From UHGV virus genome UHGV-0255412: a stretch of 20,521 bases of DNA, one strand, 5' to 3'. The position numbers and the translations under genes are program-made. The notes beneath the pieces are model-generated. The model was not told the DNA's origin, did no database searches, and saw only the letters and a list, made by a program, of their open reading frames with translations. The stretch is from a virus. Positions 1-8,354 of the stretch are shown in pieces (positions within the stretch are counted from its first letter, which is position 1; each line of letters begins with the position of its first letter).

Positions 1-2144
1 TACATCTGCACACCATGCCGCCGCATTATGACGCACTGACAACAGACAAGGACCGGAGGAACGCACCGGATACGGAACTGCTGCCGGGCGCAATCCTTCG
101 CCTGACCTGTGCGGAATGGTGGAAACGCAAACTGTGGCTGTTACGTTGCGAGTGGAGAGAGGAACAACTCCGCGCCGCCTGTCTGGTTTCCAGAAAAACA
201 TCGCCCTATCTGAGCCAGGACGCGTTAAGCGAGTTTCGCGCACAGCGCGAGAAAACTCGCGATTTTCTGAAAAGTTTCATGCTGGAAAACGAAGACGGCT
301 TCACGATTGATCTCGAGACAGTGTATTACGCGGGAGTCAGTAACCCGGTTCACCGTAAGGCAGAAATGATGGCCACCATGAAGGGACTGGAACTTCTGGC
401 CGAAGCCCGTGGCGACAAAGCGGTGTTTCTGACTGTCACATGCCCGTCAAAATACCACGCCACAACAGAGAACGGTCATCCGAACCCCAAATGGAACGGG
501 GCCACCATGCGCGACTCCAGCGATTACCTGGTTAACACGTTTTTTGCGGCGGTCCGCAAGAAACTGAACCGCGACGGCCTGCGCTGGTATGGCATCCGCA
601 CGGTGGAGCCTCACCATGACGGCACTGTGCACTGGCATATGATGGTCTTTGCTCATCCGGAAGAAATCGACAGCATCGTGGCCATCACCCGCGATATTGC
701 CATTCAGGAAGACCGCCACGAGCTGGGCAATGATATTACTCCGCGCTTTAAGGCGGAGTATGTCGACGGCTCAAAAGGCACGCCAACCAGCTACATCGCC
801 ACCTACATCGGAAAGAACCTGGACAGCCGCGCCGTGGATGACATCGACCCGAAAACGGGCAAGCCACGCGTTGACCACGAAACCGGAAAATCAATGGCCG
901 AGAGTGTGGAGCGCGCCATCGGCTGGGCGCGCCTTCATCGGGTCCGCCAGTTCCAGTTCTTTGGCATCCCCTCCCGTCAGGTGTGGCGTGAACTGCGCCG
1001 CCTTGCCAGCCAGATGGCACGCAACCCGGAAGGCCCGCAACGACTGAAAGATGACGCAATGGATGCGGTACTCGCTGCCGCCGATGCCGGGTGTTTTGCC
1101 ACCTACATTGAAAAACAGGGCGGCGTACTTGTTCCACGCAAAGACTACCTGATTCGCACCGCCTACGACCTCGCAGATGAGCTGAATGATTACGGCGAAC
1201 AGAGCGTACAGATTTACGGGATCTGGTCACCACTCATCGGGGAATCCTCCCGTGTGTGCACGCATCCGGATAACTGGAAACTGGTAAGACGTAAACCGGA
1301 AACGGAAGACAGCGCCCGCGAAAATGGTTTTGACCTTCAGGGCGGCCCTGCCGCCCCTTGGACTCGTGGCAATAACTGTCCCCGTGTACAGGAAACGGAC
1401 AACAACGGGACAGAACAGCCGGAAGAACGGCCAGCACCGTGGCCGCAGCTTCCTGACGGCGTTGACGTGAATGAATGGATGCGCTCACTGAAACGGCACG
1501 AACGCCGGGCGCTGATGCGTTCGCTGCGTGACAAACAGGCAAAAAACAGCAGTGATGAAATGCAGAACTGGACACAGAGCCGCAAACAGCCACGGCCTTT
1601 GCCTGATAACCACGAGTTACTCGCTAAAGAATGGCGGGAGTCTGCTGAATCTCTCGGCCTGCATATCGGTGAACAGCAGATGCAGCACCTGTTACGGGGC
1701 GGCAGTCTGTACGTTGACGGCAGCATCATTGCACCGCAGGGATTTGAAATTGTACGCAAACCGGATACCCGCCCGGACAGCCGAATCACGCAGCTCTGGC
1801 AGCGCCTGAGCCGTAATCATGGCGTAAGCAGCACGGAGATCCGCCATAACCCGGTCGCCAGCTATCTGGCACAGCTGGGGGCATCAGACCCCGAAGCAGC
1901 CGCACGCCTGGCATCCACACTTCAGCAGGACCAGAACACCATGAAAACACCCGTTACTGTGCTTTCTGACATGCTGCGCGCCATCCGCGACGCAGAGCAC
2001 GCACAGAGAATCAGTGAAACCACTGAACGCGCCAGCCGCAAAGCAGACCTGCTGCGGGGTGGCCTGACCAGCGGAAACAAAAAACAGACAGAAACGGGAC
2101 TCACGAATCCCGTAAATGAGCAAAAAACGCGCAGTGATATATGA
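1..2144 (+). CDS. A: Replication initiation endonuclease gpA (rolling-circle HUH nickase), 5'-partial at window edge
   Basis: Reading frame is open from the window start (frame 3), with no in-frame stop before the first Met at 15. Contains an HUH-type motif (TVHWHMMVF) and a tyrosine pair (YIATYIGKN) typical of P2 gpA-family initiators. Aligns from memory to the central and C-terminal part of P2 A. Position upstream of the accessory locus matches P2 synteny. Confidence 0.85.
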   Translation, partial: HLHTMPPHYDALTTDKDRRNAPDTELLPGAILRLTCAEWWKRKLWLLRCEWREEQLRAACLVSRKTSPYLSQDALSEFRAQREKTRDFLKSFMLENEDGFTIDLETVYYAGVSNPVHRKAEMMATMKGLELLAEARGDKAVFLTVTCPSKYHATTENGHPNPKWNGATMRDSSDYLVNTFFAAVRKKLNRDGLRWYGIRTVEPHHDGTVHWHMMVFAHPEEIDSIVAITRDIAIQEDRHELGNDITPRFKAEYVDGSKGTPTSYIATYIGKNLDSRAVDDIDPKTGKPRVDHETGKSMAESVERAIGWARLHRVRQFQFFGIPSRQVWRELRRLASQMARNPEGPQRLKDDAMDAVLAAADAGCFATYIEKQGGVLVPRKDYLIRTAYDLADELNDYGEQSVQIYGIWSPLIGESSRVCTHPDNWKLVRRKPETEDSARENGFDLQGGPAAPWTRGNNCPRVQETDNNGTEQPEERPAPWPQLPDGVDVNEWMRSLKRHERRALMRSLRDKQAKNSSDEMQNWTQSRKQPRPLPDNHELLAKEWRESAESLGLHIGEQQMQHLLRGGSLYVDGSIIAPQGFEIVRKPDTRPDSRITQLWQRLSRNHGVSSTEIRHNPVASYLAQLGASDPEAAARLASTLQQDQNTMKTPVTVLSDMLRAIRDAEHAQRISETTERASRKADLLRGGLTSGNKKQTETGLTNPVNEQKTRSDI

Positions 2145-2191
2145 AGCGCGCACAAAGCAGGCAAAAACGGGATTTCAGAATCCCGTAAACG
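2094..2191. repeat. Two copies of a ~26-bp palindrome-containing element (gaaACGGGAcTcacgAaTCCCGTaaa at 2092-2116; aaaACGGGATTtcagAATCCCGTaaa at 2168-2193)
   Basis: Read directly from the sequence. The second copy is a perfect 8-bp inverted repeat with a 4-nt spacer; the first is an imperfect version inside the last codons of gene A. The copies are ~76 bp apart and lie just upstream of the parM-like gene. Confidence 0.6.
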
Positions 2192-2220
2192 ATTAATTAA
2201 TCAACATAAGGAAAAGCGAC

Positions 2221-3180
2221 ATGAAAATTTGTATCGACGACGGCTCCACCAACATCAAGCTGGCATGGACTGAGAACGGCGAACGCCGCAACGCCATCAG
2301 CCCGAACAGCTTCAAGTCGGAATGGTCTGCGCCGTTCGGTGGCACGCAGCCCGCGAACTACATGCTTGATGGCGTGCGCTATGGTTTTGATCCGGTCAGC
2401 GATCGCTTTGTCCAGACGACCGACACGCAATACCAATACAGCGATGTGAATGTCATTGCCATTCATCACGCGCTGGTCAAATCAGGCATCACGCCACAGG
2501 AGGTGGATGTGGTTGTCACCCTGCCACTGAGCGAGTATTTCGACACAAACGCACAGCCGGACATGGCCAACATCAACCGCAAAAAAGCGAACGTTATGCG
2601 CCCGGTGGAGTACCAGAACGGTGAGGCATTCACTATCCGTAACGTGCGGGTTATGCCTGAATCCATTCCGGCAGGCTTTAAGGCACTGGCTGACATGAGT
2701 CCGTTTGAATCCCTGCTGATTGTGGATTTGGGCGGAACCACGCTGGATGTGGCAAAGGTTCAGGGACAACTGGCAGGTATCAGCCAGGTGTTTTGCGATC
2801 CACACGTAGGCGTTTCCCTGATGGCCGATGCCGTACTGTCGGTGATGGCCACTAACGGTATGCGTACCAGTCACCACATCGCCAATACCATTATCGAACA
2901 TCGCCATGATGAAGCCTGGCTGCGCCAGCACATCCACAATGACGCGCATTACGTCAGCCTGATGGCGGTTATTCGTGAAAAGGAAGAAACACTGAAACAA
3001 CGCGTGATCCGCGCGCTGGCGGGTTTTTCGGGTTACGGGCGGGTGATGGTTGTCGGTGGCGGGGCGGAGATTGTGGCACCCGCTATCCGCGAAGCCTGCG
3101 GAGTTAATGCGACTTTCATCGCGGACGAGGTGCCACAGTTTGCTCTGGTTAATGGGCTGTACGCAATGGACAAGGAGTAA
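2221..3180 (+). CDS. parM: ParM/StbA-family actin-like partition ATPase
   Basis: N-terminus MKICIDDGSTNIKLAW...ISPNSFKSEW...YSDVNVIAIHHAL...EVDVVVTLPL...DLGGTTLDV closely matches my recollection of plasmid R1 ParM (MLVFIDDGSTNIKLQW...). RBS AAGGAA 7 nt upstream of the ATG. 319 aa, typical ParM length. Confidence 0.85.
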   Translation: MKICIDDGSTNIKLAWTENGERRNAISPNSFKSEWSAPFGGTQPANYMLDGVRYGFDPVSDRFVQTTDTQYQYSDVNVIAIHHALVKSGITPQEVDVVVTLPLSEYFDTNAQPDMANINRKKANVMRPVEYQNGEAFTIRNVRVMPESIPAGFKALADMSPFESLLIVDLGGTTLDVAKVQGQLAGISQVFCDPHVGVSLMADAVLSVMATNGMRTSHHIANTIIEHRHDEAWLRQHIHNDAHYVSLMAVIREKEETLKQRVIRALAGFSGYGRVMVVGGGAEIVAPAIREACGVNATFIADEVPQFALVNGLYAMDKE

Positions 3181-3184
3181 ACCA

Positions 3185-3496
3185 ATGACGACACCAACCA
3201 GACGGATAAGTTTCTATCTGAAGCCCGCCGCCGTCAAGAATGAAGGCGAAGCATGCGCATGGCTGGACAGCCTTACACCAGAAGCCCGCAAAAGCGGCCA
3301 ACGCGTGGCTTTTCTGGCCGGGCTGGCACTTCTGAAAATGAATCCGGCAGAGGCTTACCGACTGGCTGCATGGGCTGACGATGAGGCGTTATCAGTGACA
3401 CAAACCAGGACAGAGTGCCCCTTGTCACAGCCAGTACCAACCGCACAGATAACCAGTCAGATGGCTGGGAATATCCGGGCGTTGTTTCCTGAATAA
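3185..3496 (+). CDS. parR: ParR/StbB-like partition adaptor (DNA-binding)
   Basis: 104-aa ORF immediately after parM, with AGGAG 7 nt upstream of the ATG at 3185. The N-terminal pattern RRISFYLKP...LDSLTPEARKSGQRVAFLAGLALLK resembles R1 ParR (RRTIAFKLNP...LDSIPQGERSRLNRAALTAGLALYR). The longer track ORF starting at 3050 overlaps parM and was trimmed. Confidence 0.7.
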   Translation: MTTPTRRISFYLKPAAVKNEGEACAWLDSLTPEARKSGQRVAFLAGLALLKMNPAEAYRLAAWADDEALSVTQTRTECPLSQPVPTAQITSQMAGNIRALFPE

Positions 3497-3503
3497 CACA
3501 ACA

Positions 3504-3523
3504 TCAGGGCGAGTTCGCCCTGA
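3504..3523. terminator. Perfect hairpin (TCAGGGCGA-gt-TCGCCCTGA) between convergent genes; possible bidirectional terminator
   Basis: 9-bp perfect inverted repeat between the parR stop (3496) and the stop of the minus-strand 198-aa gene (3542). No strong T-tract on either side, so terminator function is uncertain. Confidence 0.4.
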
Positions 3524-3541
3524 TGCACAAAGCATGCTAAA

Positions 3542-4138
3542 TCAGAATTTAGTATGCAATTTATCTACCAATCGCTTAGCCTCATTAAGTAGTTTTTGGT
3601 ATTCCCTGCTATCGTTTTCCTGATCTTCATACGCTCGCCGAACACGCCATCGAAGAGCAAGGCATTTTAAATTCCGGTAAAACCTCGGATTACGCTTGCG
3701 GCACTCTTCCATATAAGGTTCAAAATGGACATCAAGAAAGATTAAGGTAGAACCATAAACACGATATAGATACCGCTCATCATACAAACCGTTATTCACG
3801 GCATTAGCACAACGCTCCCACTCATTAAAAATGAGTTTTAATGCTTTTGCTCCATCCGTTTGAGAATATTCCTCTTTTCCCCAATCAGCGATCGGAAAGT
3901 TATGGCGATCCTTATGAATACGTAGCACTTCTGACCACGCATCAACTATGTCCTTGTTACGTTTATATGCAGCCTCGAAATCCAACGAATTTTTTTCGCG
4001 CGACGTTTTTCTTTGATTTCGTATGCTAATCACTGCAATAAGCGCACCCGCAGCTCCTGGATAAAACGTAGGGCTGGATTCCCAAATACTGGAAAAAATT
4101 TTTCCTATATAACTAAGGGCAGAAAGAACTAGATCCAT
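3542..4138 (-). CDS. Hypothetical protein (198 aa) with a hydrophobic N-terminus; candidate accessory or defence cargo
   Basis: Long ORF on the minus strand within a visibly AT-rich segment that contrasts with the GC-rich phage backbone. N-terminal hydrophobic stretches (LVLSALSYIGKIF..., GAAGALIAVISI) suggest a membrane anchor. I recognise no family from the sequence. Confidence 0.6.
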   Translation of the reverse strand: MDLVLSALSYIGKIFSSIWESSPTFYPGAAGALIAVISIRNQRKTSREKNSLDFEAAYKRNKDIVDAWSEVLRIHKDRHNFPIADWGKEEYSQTDGAKALKLIFNEWERCANAVNNGLYDERYLYRVYGSTLIFLDVHFEPYMEECRKRNPRFYRNLKCLALRWRVRRAYEDQENDSREYQKLLNEAKRLVDKLHTKF

Positions 4139-4149
4139 TGTATTTAACC

Positions 4150-4174
4150 ATAAAAAATGGGAGCCAAAGCCCCC
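4150..4174 (-). terminator. Intrinsic-terminator-like hairpin plus U-tract on the minus strand, 12 nt upstream of the 198-aa gene start
   Basis: Minus-strand RNA would read GGGGGC-uuug-GCUCCC (6-bp stem with one G-U pair) followed by AUUUUUUAU. On the plus strand the same stem has an A-C mismatch, so the structure is better on the minus strand. Confidence 0.45.
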
Positions 4175-4206
4175 ATTCTACTGAAACTACTCTAAAAAAA
4201 CAGGAG

Positions 4207-4251
4207 TTAAACGTCCCAGTTTTCTTCGCTATAGATGCGGCGTACGGTCAT
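4207..4251 (-). CDS. Candidate 14-codon leader peptide (MTVRRIYSEENWDV) with a strong Shine-Dalgarno sequence
   Basis: Minus-strand AGGAGA 7 nt upstream of an ATG, then 14 codons and TAA, followed by the terminator-like hairpin and the 198-aa gene. Too short to call from composition alone. Confidence 0.2.
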   Translation of the reverse strand: MTVRRIYSEENWDV

Positions 4252-4491
4252 AGTTAGTCTCCTCTTTTCAATCATTTAAACATCACTAATTTACTTTTAA
4301 CATGGAGATGGTTTTACAGTTGTCAACCACCTCCCCCAAATCTGTTGGGGTAAGCTATCACGCCTACCATACACATACAATGATGAGGCTATATCGTGCA
4401 GCCACACCGACAAGGATAAGTACATCTTCTTCGCTGTCTTTATGTGACCAAATATAGCACATTTGAAGCGATATACATCCTGTAATGATAC

Positions 4492-4518
4492 TGCACAATA
4501 GTGCACAAATTTGCACAA
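4492..4518. repeat. Three direct TGCACAA repeats phased at exactly 10 bp (cTGCACAAta gTGCACAAat tTGCACAAtt)
   Basis: Read directly from the sequence at 4492-4498, 4502-4508 and 4512-4518. Additional copies of the heptamer occur at 4584-4590 and 3524-3530. Confidence 0.6.
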
Positions 4519-4891
4519 TTTTTTTGAACGACTTTTTGCCCTTCCGGCCCGCGTGGCGGCTGGATCCGTCAAGGATCCGTGCGTGCACAAAAAAACACGC
4601 TTTTTCTGCGCGCAGGTGACGGGGGAACAGCCCGCGTTTCAGGGGGTAAATAGCATTCCCTGAACGATGTCGCAGCGACACAACAGAATGGCTGTATCGC
4701 TCACGCTGAGCGTGAAAAAGACGTAAGGTGTTCTGATTTGATGGTATGAAAGGTAAGGCCGTCAAAATCGCACTGAGGCGGCGAGAACATGCAGTCAGCG
4801 CGGCGGGATTGTGTAAGAGTCTGGCCGTCGATGATAGCGATAAGTCGGAAGACGTCGTGAAATTATCTGATTGATACAGGAGCTGGAGAGT

Positions 4892-4916
4892 CGGGGCATA
4901 AATTTTTTATGCCCCG
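4892..4916. repeat. Near-perfect 25-bp palindrome / hairpin (CGGGGCATAAA-ttt-TTTATGCCCCG)
   Basis: 11-bp stem with a 3-nt loop, read directly. No trailing T-tract on either strand, so not a canonical intrinsic terminator. Lies ~100 bp upstream of the 175-aa gene. Confidence 0.5.
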
Positions 4917-5017
4917 GCGAAGCAGCAGACAAGCGAAGCGCGTCAGTGATGCGGCACCTTGCCGACCACACTTCATAAGTGCAAAATACGAGCAAAGAAA
5001 TCAATGGAGGCTGTTCT

Positions 5018-5542
5018 ATGGTCATTAATTACAAGCAGTTACGAGAAAAACGAGATCAGGTAAAGGAGAGTTTTCGCCGCAATGAAGACCTGACCCCGCT
5101 TGTACGCATTGCCCAGGGAATTGTTGATGCTTATGAAATCTCTCTGGAGCTGCCATCACAGACATGGACGGATAGCGACGGTAATCGCCAGCATTACGTT
5201 TCATGCGGACTGGAAACGGCTGAAGGGTTTCGCAGAATGCCTTTATCTCAGATTCCTGCCGCTACCCCCAAAGCAAGGGGCGGCAATGATGAGCGAAAAC
5301 TGATTTTCAGCATTGAGACAGTGGTTGACGACACACCTGGCGAAGTCGCCTTCGTGCATACTCCTCTTTCGATCGCAATGTATAACGATGAAATACAGGT
5401 TCGCGTTAATAATAATATCGTGCCACTTAAAGAAGGTAATTCACCATACACCACCGTTTGTGAAGCCATTCAATATTACGTTCTCTCTGAAATTGATAAT
5501 CTCAAGCCTGACGGCACCCAGAAAATGGTTCAACTCTGGTAA
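5018..5542 (+). CDS. Hypothetical protein (175 aa); orphan accessory gene
   Basis: GGAGG 7 nt upstream of the ATG at 5018. The track ORF from 4979 has no RBS and was trimmed. Followed by a strong terminator. No recognisable motifs. Confidence 0.6.
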   Translation: MVINYKQLREKRDQVKESFRRNEDLTPLVRIAQGIVDAYEISLELPSQTWTDSDGNRQHYVSCGLETAEGFRRMPLSQIPAATPKARGGNDERKLIFSIETVVDDTPGEVAFVHTPLSIAMYNDEIQVRVNNNIVPLKEGNSPYTTVCEAIQYYVLSEIDNLKPDGTQKMVQLW

Positions 5543-5547
5543 AAAGG

Positions 5548-5574
5548 ACAGCCCCATCACGGGGCTGTTTTTTC
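5548..5574. terminator. Rho-independent terminator (CAGCCCC-atcac-GGGGCTG followed by TTTTTT), shared by convergent genes
   Basis: 7-bp GC-rich stem and T6 run directly after the stop of the 175-aa gene. The stop codon of minus-strand gene Q (5557-5559) lies inside the loop, and an A-run on the other side would give a U-tract for the minus-strand transcript. Confidence 0.65.
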
Positions 5575-6603
5575 ATCAAGAAGAGCATAAGAATTAAAAC
5601 GGATCACCTCTTCGCCAAGCCAGTCATTGATGTGCTTCATGGCCTCCATAACGGGCATCAGCTCGTTAATTGCGTAAACCCGCGCGGCCTTTTCCACATC
5701 ACCAAACGCACTTTTTTCACCCGGCATCGCCCCCATCAGTTGCGGCGGAACGCGGTGCGCAGCCAGCACATCATCACGGGATGCCGCCTTAACATTCATG
5801 AACTCATCCTTTGCGGTGATCTGCTGGAACGGCAAAATTTGCACACCTTCTTTGCCCCCGTTGGGCGCATGAATGAGCACGTTTTTAAACGCACCACCAC
5901 CACGTGCACCCTGTAGCGTTTCTTTCAGGGAGTCCATGCTTTCGCGGTTTACCTGCGCTGCACCGATGTAGATGATACACCCGGCGTGGGATCCGTTGTC
6001 GTAATACAGTTTTCTGAACATGTCCGCCGAATGAGACAGGCTGGCCGAGAGTAATGCGCCGAGATATTCCGGCATGCCGTAGATTTCCTGGTTAATGTCA
6101 GGATTCATCAGGTGGCACACTTTGCCAGGGCGAAACTGAAACGCGTCCTTGCCATCCTGCACATACCACCATGATTCAAGATCGCTTCCGCGTCGCATGT
6201 ATTTCGCCAGTGCGTGCCGTAATTTAAGCGGTTCGCCGAGCATATTGTTTCGAAGCTCAAGGAATGCGTTACCGAACACAAACCAGTCCAGCGCCAGCGC
6301 CGAGAAATCCTGCCGGGAAAGCAGCGGGTGCGGGATGTAGCAACCGAGTAATACATTGCGCTTAAAGTAAAGCGCAGACTGATGCCAGGACGTTTGCCGG
6401 GCAGCTCTTGCCAGACCGTACCAGTCCACCGGGGTTTCATACCACCGCCCGTTATCAGCACAGTACATATTGTCCAGCAGGTCATGCCCGGTCAGGCGAT
6501 AAGGACCATCAAATGTGAATGCACTGAGCGATGATTCTTTCCTGAGCGCATCAGCGAGATCAATGCGTGAACTCATGCGCACTTTTTTATTTTTTCTGCT
6601 CAT
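5557..6603 (-). CDS. Q: Portal protein gpQ
   Basis: 348 aa (P2 Q is ~344 aa). Sits directly downstream of, and 1 nt overlapped with, the terminase gene on the minus strand, as in the P2 P-Q operon. Confidence 0.85.
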   Translation of the reverse strand: MSRKNKKVRMSSRIDLADALRKESSLSAFTFDGPYRLTGHDLLDNMYCADNGRWYETPVDWYGLARAARQTSWHQSALYFKRNVLLGCYIPHPLLSRQDFSALALDWFVFGNAFLELRNNMLGEPLKLRHALAKYMRRGSDLESWWYVQDGKDAFQFRPGKVCHLMNPDINQEIYGMPEYLGALLSASLSHSADMFRKLYYDNGSHAGCIIYIGAAQVNRESMDSLKETLQGARGGGAFKNVLIHAPNGGKEGVQILPFQQITAKDEFMNVKAASRDDVLAAHRVPPQLMGAMPGEKSAFGDVEKAARVYAINELMPVMEAMKHINDWLGEEVIRFNSYALLDEKTAP

Positions 6604-8354
6604 CAGAACTCCATAACCGTGAAACGCTCGTTTTCTCCTTCGCCGCCAATCGGTTCGTTAATGACAGCAAGCATGGTTGCCCACGCAAGGTCGCCGTGGC
6701 TGATCCCCCTCGCGCGGTCCGTTTCGTAAGTGATAAAGCCGCCCGGTGTTTTCACCTTACGCACGGCGTTAAAGGCCGCAACCAGCTCGCGTTCGGCGCG
6801 ATCGTATTCCCACCGCCCGGCACGCATTATTTGCAGCATTTTCAGTACCAGCGACCGTTTTGATGACAGCGTGAAGGTGTACGGAATAGCAGCAGGGAAA
6901 AACCGTTTCACTATCTGATAAACAGCCTCCCCGTTCCCGCCCGTCACATCAATGCCGATGTGTTCCACGTTGTAGCGATACGTGAACTCTTCAATGACTC
7001 TGGCCTGTTCTTCAAACTCCAGCCCCTGAACGCGTCGCGTCTCCACCGTTCGAAAACGGCCACCAGGAACAGCCGGAGGAACCACCACGGACACAGCGCC
7101 GCTGTCGCCGTTGCCACTGCTGCCGTTTGCGTCATACCCAATCCATACCGGACGATTCCCCATCGGGCGGGGAGCAAAAGGTTTCCAGTCTTTCCAGTCG
7201 TCGTATCCGTCAACACCACAGCCAATCAGGATATTCAGGTTAAATGCCGATTCCCCTTCGCGGACAAACTCACACATATAGAGATTGAGGAACTCGTCTT
7301 CGGTGTTTTCATCACGAATTTCATCAATATCGGTGTGTTTCCAGCCGTGATTAACCACATCTTCCAGCGTGACAATTTGCCGCCACGTCCGGTCAGGGCA
7401 GATAAGCCCGTTATGCAGCGTTTTCCAGTCCACAGAAAAACGCTGGCGTTTATGCGAGGCCTTTTTCTCGTTCCAGCGGTCGCCGTTCCAGTAGGCGTAT
7501 GCCTCGTGCGTTTCGGTGGATGGCGTGGAGAAGTAGGTGCGCCGCAGTCCGCTGAGGGTTGCCATAGCGCCAGCCACCTTGCGCAGTTCAGCAAAGCGAC
7601 TGACCCAGAAAAATTCATCAAAATAAAAATTGCCCGTATAGGACTGTGCCGACGCAGCAGAAGTACCGAGAAAATGCAGCTCTGCGCCGTTGGAGAGGAT
7701 GATTTTATCGCCCCCTTTCAGCTCCACATCAACTTCAGCCGCGGCTTTCTGAATAATGCTTTTAAACTGGAACGCCTGACGACGCGACGCAGACAAAAAA
7801 ATCTGGTTACGCTGGTAAGGTTGCGCCACATCGTCACGCAGCGCCATCAGCAGAGCTTCCTGTGCAAAATACCAGGTCGCCCCAATCTGTCGGGATTTCA
7901 GGATCATCCTGTTACGTATCCCGGCTTCCCTGCAAAGGGTCAGGGAGTCAAACCAGCCCCGCTGATGCCACTCCAGCCTGCTGATGATTTTTTCCCGCAG
8001 TGCGGCAATCTGCTCCGGCGTGAAATGATTTTTGAGTTTTTTCGCCCGGCCTTTCTTTCCTGTGGCCGTCGCATCCGGCTGGCCATCATGCAATTTTTTA
8101 AGCTGCCGGGTCAGCAGGTCTATTTCCTTGAAGTCACCACCTGTTTTATTCTGTTTTTCAGTGAGCTGGATGAGGCGCGCATCGATGGACTGCGTGACAC
8201 GCTGCACGGGTGGCGTTTCATCCCACTGGTCGCGTTTTTTCCACGCATAAATCGTGTTCGGGTTTATTCCCATCAGACGTGATATTTCTGCGGGCGGATA
8301 ACCCTGCCAGTAAAGTTGCCGCGCACGCTGGCGCACAAAAGCGTCCTGAATCAT
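6603..8354 (-). CDS. P: Terminase large (ATPase) subunit gpP
   Basis: 583 aa (P2 P is ~590 aa). N-terminal helix-turn-helix-like region (YPPAEISRLMGINPNTIYAWKKR) and length/position are typical of P2-family terminase ATPase. Divergent from gene O. Confidence 0.9.
   Translation of the reverse strand: MIQDAFVRQRARQLYWQGYPPAEISRLMGINPNTIYAWKKRDQWDETPPVQRVTQSIDARLIQLTEKQNKTGGDFKEIDLLTRQLKKLHDGQPDATATGKKGRAKKLKNHFTPEQIAALREKIISRLEWHQRGWFDSLTLCREAGIRNRMILKSRQIGATWYFAQEALLMALRDDVAQPYQRNQIFLSASRRQAFQFKSIIQKAAAEVDVELKGGDKIILSNGAELHFLGTSAASAQSYTGNFYFDEFFWVSRFAELRKVAGAMATLSGLRRTYFSTPSTETHEAYAYWNGDRWNEKKASHKRQRFSVDWKTLHNGLICPDRTWRQIVTLEDVVNHGWKHTDIDEIRDENTEDEFLNLYMCEFVREGESAFNLNILIGCGVDGYDDWKDWKPFAPRPMGNRPVWIGYDANGSSGNGDSGAVSVVVPPAVPGGRFRTVETRRVQGLEFEEQARVIEEFTYRYNVEHIGIDVTGGNGEAVYQIVKRFFPAAIPYTFTLSSKRSLVLKMLQIMRAGRWEYDRAERELVAAFNAVRKVKTPGGFITYETDRARGISHGDLAWATMLAVINEPIGGEGENERFTVMEF

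Follow-up and report, generated by a model that had tools for sequence, protein, structure and literature searches.

The stretch analyzed here, 20,521 nucleotides of UHGV virus genome UHGV-0255412 (the window), is a segment of a P2-like prophage. Behind gpA, the gene for the replication initiator, it carries two rightward genes, parM and parR, which by the sequence of their products and by their layout form an intact type II (ParMRC-type) partition cassette, together with an atypical cis element of two sites that is a candidate centromere. We hypothesize that this cassette acts on the circular extrachromosomal phage genome, by analogy with SrpMRC of the SXT/R391 integrative and conjugative elements or AlpAC of the Corynebacterium glutamicum prophage CGP3, and not in long-term plasmid carriage; to this reading we assign a probability of roughly 0.55. 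The features concerned are the following.

15-2144, plus strand: gpA, replication initiator, 5' end cut by the window edge (Pfam Phage_GPA, 1e-116)
1342-1379, plus strand: homologue of the P2 origin nick region within gpA, from DNA alignment with the P2 ori core
2094-2113: candidate centromere/operator site 1, ACGGGACTCACGAATCCCGT, core GGG-N10-CCC at 2096-2111, in the last gpA codons, -125 from the parM ATG
2167-2186: candidate centromere/operator site 2, ACGGGATTTCAGAATCCCGT, core GGG-N10-CCC at 2169-2184, intergenic, -52 from the parM ATG
2196-2212, plus strand: element ATTAATCAA (2196-2204) and ribosome-binding site AAGGA (2208-2212), read from the sequence
2221-3180, plus strand: parM, actin-like partition ATPase of 319 amino acids (matches in Pfam, PDB and PHROGs)
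3185-3496, plus strand: parR, adaptor of 103 amino acids (Pfam, profile-versus-PDB comparison and alignments)

The original prediction named a clear ParM homologue and a ParR-like adaptor, and profile searches bear out both. Sequence comparison shows the first protein to be a close homologue of the R1 ParM with its catalytic motifs intact: it matches from end to end the Pfam families StbA_N (PF06406, 1.8e-82) and PF21523, the C-terminal domain (3e-68), and its residues 2-316 align to the R1 ParM structures 1mwk and 4a62 with E=8e-93. The nucleotide-binding and catalytic motifs IDDGST (D6/D7), PES and DLGGTT are retained, and in the alignment E147 and D169 correspond to E148 and D170 of R1 ParM. 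Both protein families of the cassette are present in PHROGs (phrog_691 and phrog_2515) under the name 'partition protein', and a search of NCBIfam returned sub-threshold matches only. The second reading frame begins at the ATG at 3185 rather than at the upstream TTG given in the list of open reading frames, and its product matches Plasmid_stab_B (PF10784, the StbB/ParR family) at 1.6e-24. A phmmer search of the PDB with the single ParR sequence gave no match; a profile built from phage ParRs only found ParR of pB171 (2jd3) as its best match (E=0.0024), and when two plasmid ParRs were added to the profile the same structure was matched at 3.7e-14.

ParR has three parts: a conserved N-terminal domain (residues 1-65) that includes the strand RRISFYLKP, a linker that varies (66-95), and a conserved C-terminal tail, NIRALFPE. 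The N-terminal domain is predicted from sequence to be a DNA-binding domain of the ribbon-helix-helix type, as in the StbB/ParR family. An AlphaFold2 model of the monomer was poor (predicted local distance difference test score, pLDDT, of 56); the positions of its helices and disordered linker agree with this layout, and the tail is predicted as helical. In R1 ParR the C-terminal tail is the peptide that binds ParM, and the invariant tail of the phage proteins, N-I-(R/Q)-x-x-F-P-E, aligns with the tail of R1 StbB, KKNAMKLIN.

Two 20-nt palindromes upstream of parM, 73 nt apart, had been put forward as candidate cis sites, and this proposal gains from comparison between genera, in which their position and spacing appear conserved. 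In E. coli, Hafnia and Plesiomonas, the stretch of 300 nt ahead of parM contains exactly two copies of GGG-N10-CCC, at -125/-52 (spacing 73), -128/-55 (73) and -131/-59 (72), respectively, and a pair with such spacing arises in at most 5e-5 of shuffles. No further copy of the palindrome motif is present in the window, and none in the complete genome of P88 (0.08-0.22 matches expected by chance). The inner ten bases and the flanks of the sites have diverged between the three genera. Since a structure scan marks both palindromes as minus-strand terminator-like, and in E. coli they fold with -8.7 and -10.7 kcal/mol, it could be argued that they are hairpins, either minus-strand terminators or structures of the gpA-parM mRNA, instead of ParR sites. 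We regard this as quite unlikely. No minus-strand gene reads into the palindromes, which are found in the place of a type II centromere, upstream of parM like parC of R1. Moreover, the terminator-like call is disfavored because folding is weak in Hafnia and Plesiomonas (-3.3 to -4.9 kcal/mol, the Hafnia sites being at the level of shuffles with z-scores of -0.7 and -0.9), while the GGG/CCC triplets and the 72-73 bp spacing are all that is kept. On the strength of the cross-genus comparison the palindromes were rejected as conserved hairpins or terminators, and by the pattern of bases retained the conserved feature is a putative double-stranded recognition pattern.

In the Serratia/Enterobacter subclade no GGG-N10-CCC is found, and inverted arms of 14-20 nt, 26-28 nt apart, are present instead. 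In the same subclade the ParR strand reads NRKISFYLKP as against TRRISFYLKP, so that the type of site seems to change along with the DNA-reading strand of ParR in this small sample of related lineages. Covariation of ParR alleles and sites within E. coli was tried likewise and is uninformative on specificity, for an allele of 56% identity has the same 18 N-terminal residues and the same sites. The palindromes were also considered as a replication origin, and they are not the origin because the P2 ori core aligns to 1342-1379, about 0.75 kb upstream of them. In our reading of the sequence, the two-site element may serve as a minimal centromere, as an operator, or in both roles. Past site 2, and ahead of the ribosome-binding site, lies the AT-rich ATTAATCAA, common to E. 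coli, Hafnia and Plesiomonas, which could be a weak -10 element. A sigma-70 promoter scan of positions 1900-4400 found no consensus-level site. The dyad of P2 late promoters, TGT-N12-ACA, does not occur near parM, a result that is uninformative as the same pattern also missed known late-operon starts.

Homologues of ParM form a near-identical E. coli group followed, after a gap, by proteins of Plesiomonas (63%), Hafnia (62%), Serratia (58%) and Enterobacter (54%), and all four of these deeper loci are in P2-like prophages in which gpA, parM, parR and a few cargo genes precede ogr or portal and terminase. The order gpA-parM-parR-cargo-portal is constant across five genera, and the same gpA-parM-parR context was seen in a Serratia quinivorans locus and in one metagenomic contig. 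The next match, from Pantoea (53%), is on a plasmid, adjoining Rep3 and ParA. In a neighbor-joining tree of 109 ParMs (midpoint-rooted, without bootstrap) all ParMs with verified phage context fall in one clade, apart from those of IncI, R1-like and Pantoea plasmids. Across the Hafnia, Plesiomonas, Serratia and Enterobacter loci ParM is 54-63% identical, portal 30-47%, large terminase (TerL) 36-43% and gpA 32-66%, ParM being better conserved than portal and TerL, and than gpA in two of the four cases. Nor are the genes in general disrupted pseudogenes, a point the original prediction had raised: among 80 IMG/VR loci chosen by ParM similarity, the reading frame is intact in all 80 for ParM and in 75 for ParR, and a sizeable minority of database entries is truncated.

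The separate phage ParM clade, the synteny across genera, the conservation of ParM and the intact reading frames, taken together, speak for a phage-adapted module of long standing and against a recent passenger. The opposite view would be that a plasmid par locus was recently acquired by recombination and has no role in the phage; most P2-like phages are without the cassette, and truncated alleles are common, as would be expected of such a locus. Yet a passenger fits badly with a clade distinct from plasmid ParMs, with an order of genes maintained between phages whose portal proteins are only 30-47% identical, and with a conserved site architecture, and we consider it very improbable. As for the reach of these searches, a scan of IMG/VR with ParM returned relatives of 98-99% only, and a scan of genome contigs returned 18 loci, mostly plasmid-type. 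On a contig labeled 'Vagococcus sp.' the ParM shares 97% identity with that of the E. coli phage, and on one from a 'Lachnospiraceae' metagenome-assembled genome the ParM is of enterobacterial type (51%); contamination or misbinning probably accounts for both.

The element is a P88-like (Xuanwuvirus) P2-like temperate phage that integrates into the chromosome. The 3' end of gpA, parM and parR share 94-98% nucleotide identity with P88, PhiR44_2, Xuanwuvirus P884B11, Citrobacter phage PhiSM and others, and the P88 and Xuanwuvirus records already annotate the pair as ParM and partition protein. The cassette is found in 1308 of 5426 complete E. coli genomes (24%), ST131 and O157:H7 strains included, at 1456 places with a maximum of three copies per genome. 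The original prediction took the cassette to suggest that the element can be maintained as an episome, in a phage-plasmid lifestyle in which ParMRC would serve long-term low-copy maintenance instead of integration. The origin, gpA and parMRC together do resemble a replicon with a partition module, and the idea has also been raised in print (PMC9122126). Nevertheless, the data argue against a plasmid lifestyle, which we hold to be very unlikely and the least supported option, given that 1454 of the 1456 places are chromosomal and that full relatives possess integrase, C repressor and Cox and have host genes on their flanks (in E. coli and Plesiomonas). In P88 no plasmid-type replicon is annotated, gpA being the sole replication protein, and relatives in E. 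coli and Plesiomonas agree with P88 in this. Seven 'plasmid' records of PLSDB carry this ParR. One of them, NZ_CP148288.1, is a 34.5-kb circle in a complete E. coli assembly and consists of an entire P88-like phage with its integrase; the assembly may have captured an excised or replicating form, or the circle may represent a rare episomal state, but in the E. coli collection its integrase type is chromosomal in 311 of 311 places. The remaining records are prophages inside large plasmids, or fragments.

As a separate observation, the IncC KPC plasmid pC-Ec2-KPC (NZ_MK439959.1) contains at 38014-54325 a partial P88-like prophage with gpA, parMR, portal, terminase and capsid genes, which directly adjoins IS26 and a Tn3-family transposase.

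Two systems of integrated elements offer models of what a partition cassette could do in a phage of this kind. SrpMRC is a type II system on a normally integrated element, is expressed only upon activation, and stabilizes the transient excised circle, lowering its loss (PMC4489591). AlpAC comprises an early-induced actin-like protein and its adaptor, and is required for efficient phage DNA replication (PMC4446434). In the mechanism that we propose, ParR dimers would bind both sites, and the small partition complex so formed would lie about 0.75 kb from the origin of the phage; the tails of ParR would catch the ends of ParM filaments, and filament growth would move or separate the phage DNA circles. 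The cassette would be expressed as part of the early/replication operon once the phage has infected a cell or been induced, while the genome is a free circle. Expression with the early operon is probable because gpA and parMR are successive genes on one strand with neither a plus-strand terminator nor a consensus promoter between them; the same-strand position behind gpA was seen in every lineage, and a strong hairpin follows parR. The benefit might be that dividing cells do not lose circles still waiting to be integrated or packaged, as with SrpMRC, or that the circles are placed for efficient replication, as with AlpAC. Positioning of the genome by ParMR was among the alternatives of the original prediction, and it is the one that we favor.

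Several points weigh against the proposal that the cassette acts on the free circle. About three quarters of P2-like phages, P2 included, are without the cassette, which is consequently not needed for the basic life cycle. About one fifth of database ParM sequences belong to truncated alleles (a frameshift near residue 224 with 649 members, ends at residues 188 and 261 with 555 and 414, as against intact clusters of about 5600), which suggests that loss is tolerated and that the cassette decays in some resident prophage lineages. The choice of IMG/VR loci by ParM similarity inflates the apparent conservation of ParM within E. coli. Only two sites are present, compared with ten iterons in R1 parC, and the cis element could perhaps be an operator alone. 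The timing of expression is inferred from gene order and the negative promoter scan, and ATTAATCAA, if it served as a weak promoter of the cassette itself, could permit expression in the lysogen. Finally, no functional study of this cassette was found in the literature. A variant of the proposal, in our opinion rather unlikely, is that the phage passes through a transient, facultative plasmid-like carrier stage, following infection or excision, in which gpA with its origin and the two-site parMRC would let the circle be inherited over cell divisions before integration or lysis; if true, such a stage would make P88-like phages a bridge between integrative phages and phage-plasmids.

The two proteins differ in their variability. 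In E. coli prophages nucleotide diversity is 0.003-0.03 in parM, climbs from 0.05 to 0.27 along parR and reaches 0.5 in the cargo; correspondingly, ParR clusters have 52-95% identity and ParM clusters 92-99%. The parR gene is mosaic: some alleles, 52-56% identical, are replaced past the first 18 codons, while their parM is 98-99% identical. Alleles split from codon 19-20 or so (about position 3244 of the window) but share residues 1-18, the C-terminal tail and the cis sites, and the boundary of a recombination hotspot appears to lie inside parR. Variation of ParR falls mostly within the linker. We read these patterns as the outcome of a position at the edge of the hotspot and of a weakly constrained linker, and not as a diversified specificity.

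The polymorphism of ParR, far greater than that of ParM in E. coli, could also be the mark of competition, the cassette being expressed in the lysogen from its own ParR-controlled promoter and interfering with related phages or plasmids by partition incompatibility or by mis-positioning their DNA. It adjoins the P2 gpA-Q defense hotspot (PMC9122126), a conserved AT-rich element follows site 2, and up to three copies share a genome, all of which would suit such a role. We find this explanation doubtful, since the divergent ParR alleles share the DNA-reading N-terminus and the sites, an indication that specificity has not diversified, and the variation is mostly in the linker. Cross-talk with plasmids is unlikely as well, for their ParMs are at most 52% and their ParRs 25-29% identical. 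In addition, the cassette is fixed in its lineage, unlike the variable cargo of the hotspot, and PADLOC gave no match for ParM, ParR or the adjoining cargo, including the DUF4760 protein encoded after parR. That the cassette is itself a piece of gpA-Q hotspot cargo, comparable to the old/tin-like defense genes, was rejected in view of the low diversity of parM as against that of the cargo, the lack of a PADLOC match and the cross-genus synteny.

Compared with ParMRC (StbA/StbB) of R1/NR1 and pB171, the phage cassette has the same order of cis site, parM and parR, a ParM that is 47-52% identical to the plasmid ParMs, and a ParR of the same Pfam family with a related C-terminal tail. It differs in its carrier, a tailed phage that integrates, in its neighbors, the rolling-circle initiator gpA and the origin of gpA, and in a ParM lineage separate from that of the plasmid proteins. 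In R1 parC, for which the sequence of a related IncF plasmid was used, the promoter is flanked by ten A/C-rich iterons in two groups of five tandem 11-bp units, whereas the cis element of the phage consists of two sites of 16-20 bp, 73 bp apart. The phage ParR has 103 amino acids instead of the 117 of R1 and is 25% identical to it. With the cassettes of P88, PhiSM and P884B11 it is the same, the only difference of the window being its cargo behind parR, where a DUF4760 gene is found. The likeness to SrpMRC is looser, in that SrpM is distant from R1 ParM, SrpR is without a recognizable ParR domain and the element is conjugative and not a phage; the function was demonstrated there, while for the phage cassette it is deduced. 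AlpAC differs in actin-like family, gene order and host phylum, and is likened by function only.

The cassette as such is already known. A survey of the gpA-Q region in E. coli P2-like prophages (Rousset et al. 2022, PMC9122126) mentions it and brings up the phage-plasmid idea as a passing remark, and in the paper on PhiSM the gene figures solely as a 'fitness' factor (PMC6456863). The cassette and the phage-plasmid reading have thus been published as remarks, and as a sequence finding the cassette is annotated, catalogued and ordinary. What is added here is the phage ParM clade, the cross-genus conservation of ParM downstream of gpA and the two-site GGG-N10-CCC candidate centromere. Should the cassette indeed organize or segregate phage circles, it would show clearly that a type II segrosome can serve a tailed phage that integrates, and would do so in the host that is studied best; the two-site candidate centromere would then offer a very small and tractable system in which to follow how ParR assembles on DNA.

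The surroundings of the cassette are those of a P2-like phage, with gpA, the two rightward genes, a leftward DUF4760 gene, portal and large terminase, and then head, lysis and tail genes. The remaining features are given below.

3501-3526: hairpin with an 11-bp stem between the convergent parR and DUF4760 genes, from a structure scan
3542-4138, minus strand: DUF4760 protein (PF15956, 1.2e-24; phrog_2284, function unknown)
4979-5542, plus strand: open reading frame of unknown function adjoining portal (phrog_5091, 8e-66)
5557-6603, minus strand: portal
6603-8354, minus strand: large terminase

The last essential gene of the early operon, gpA, is held in the window with its 3' two thirds and is 35% identical to gpA of P2; in the P2 record the nick is annotated at 29892, from where 427 nt remain to the end of gene A. 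About 190 C-terminal residues of the window protein (1575-2144; residues 520-709 or so) are without a counterpart in P2 gpA, the alignment stopping near residue 513, and site 1 falls within the last codons of this extension. The parMR genes close the rightward early operon, in the place of P2 orf91, and not where P2 carries old/tin as had been predicted; the equivalent of the old/tin slot is the variable cargo downstream of parR (3542-5540). A second strong hairpin, also with an 11-bp stem, adjoins the first at 3532-3557, and the two probably end both transcription units, that of parR and that of the DUF4760 gene.

The DUF4760 gene occupies the variable gpA-Q cargo slot, in the tin/old place of P2, and is possibly an uncharacterized anti-phage gene; its arrangement as cargo after parR was found in 15 of the 5426 complete E. 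coli genomes. The product of the open reading frame at 4979-5542 is labeled "hypothetical" also in two related prophages, one of them in NZ_MK439959.1.

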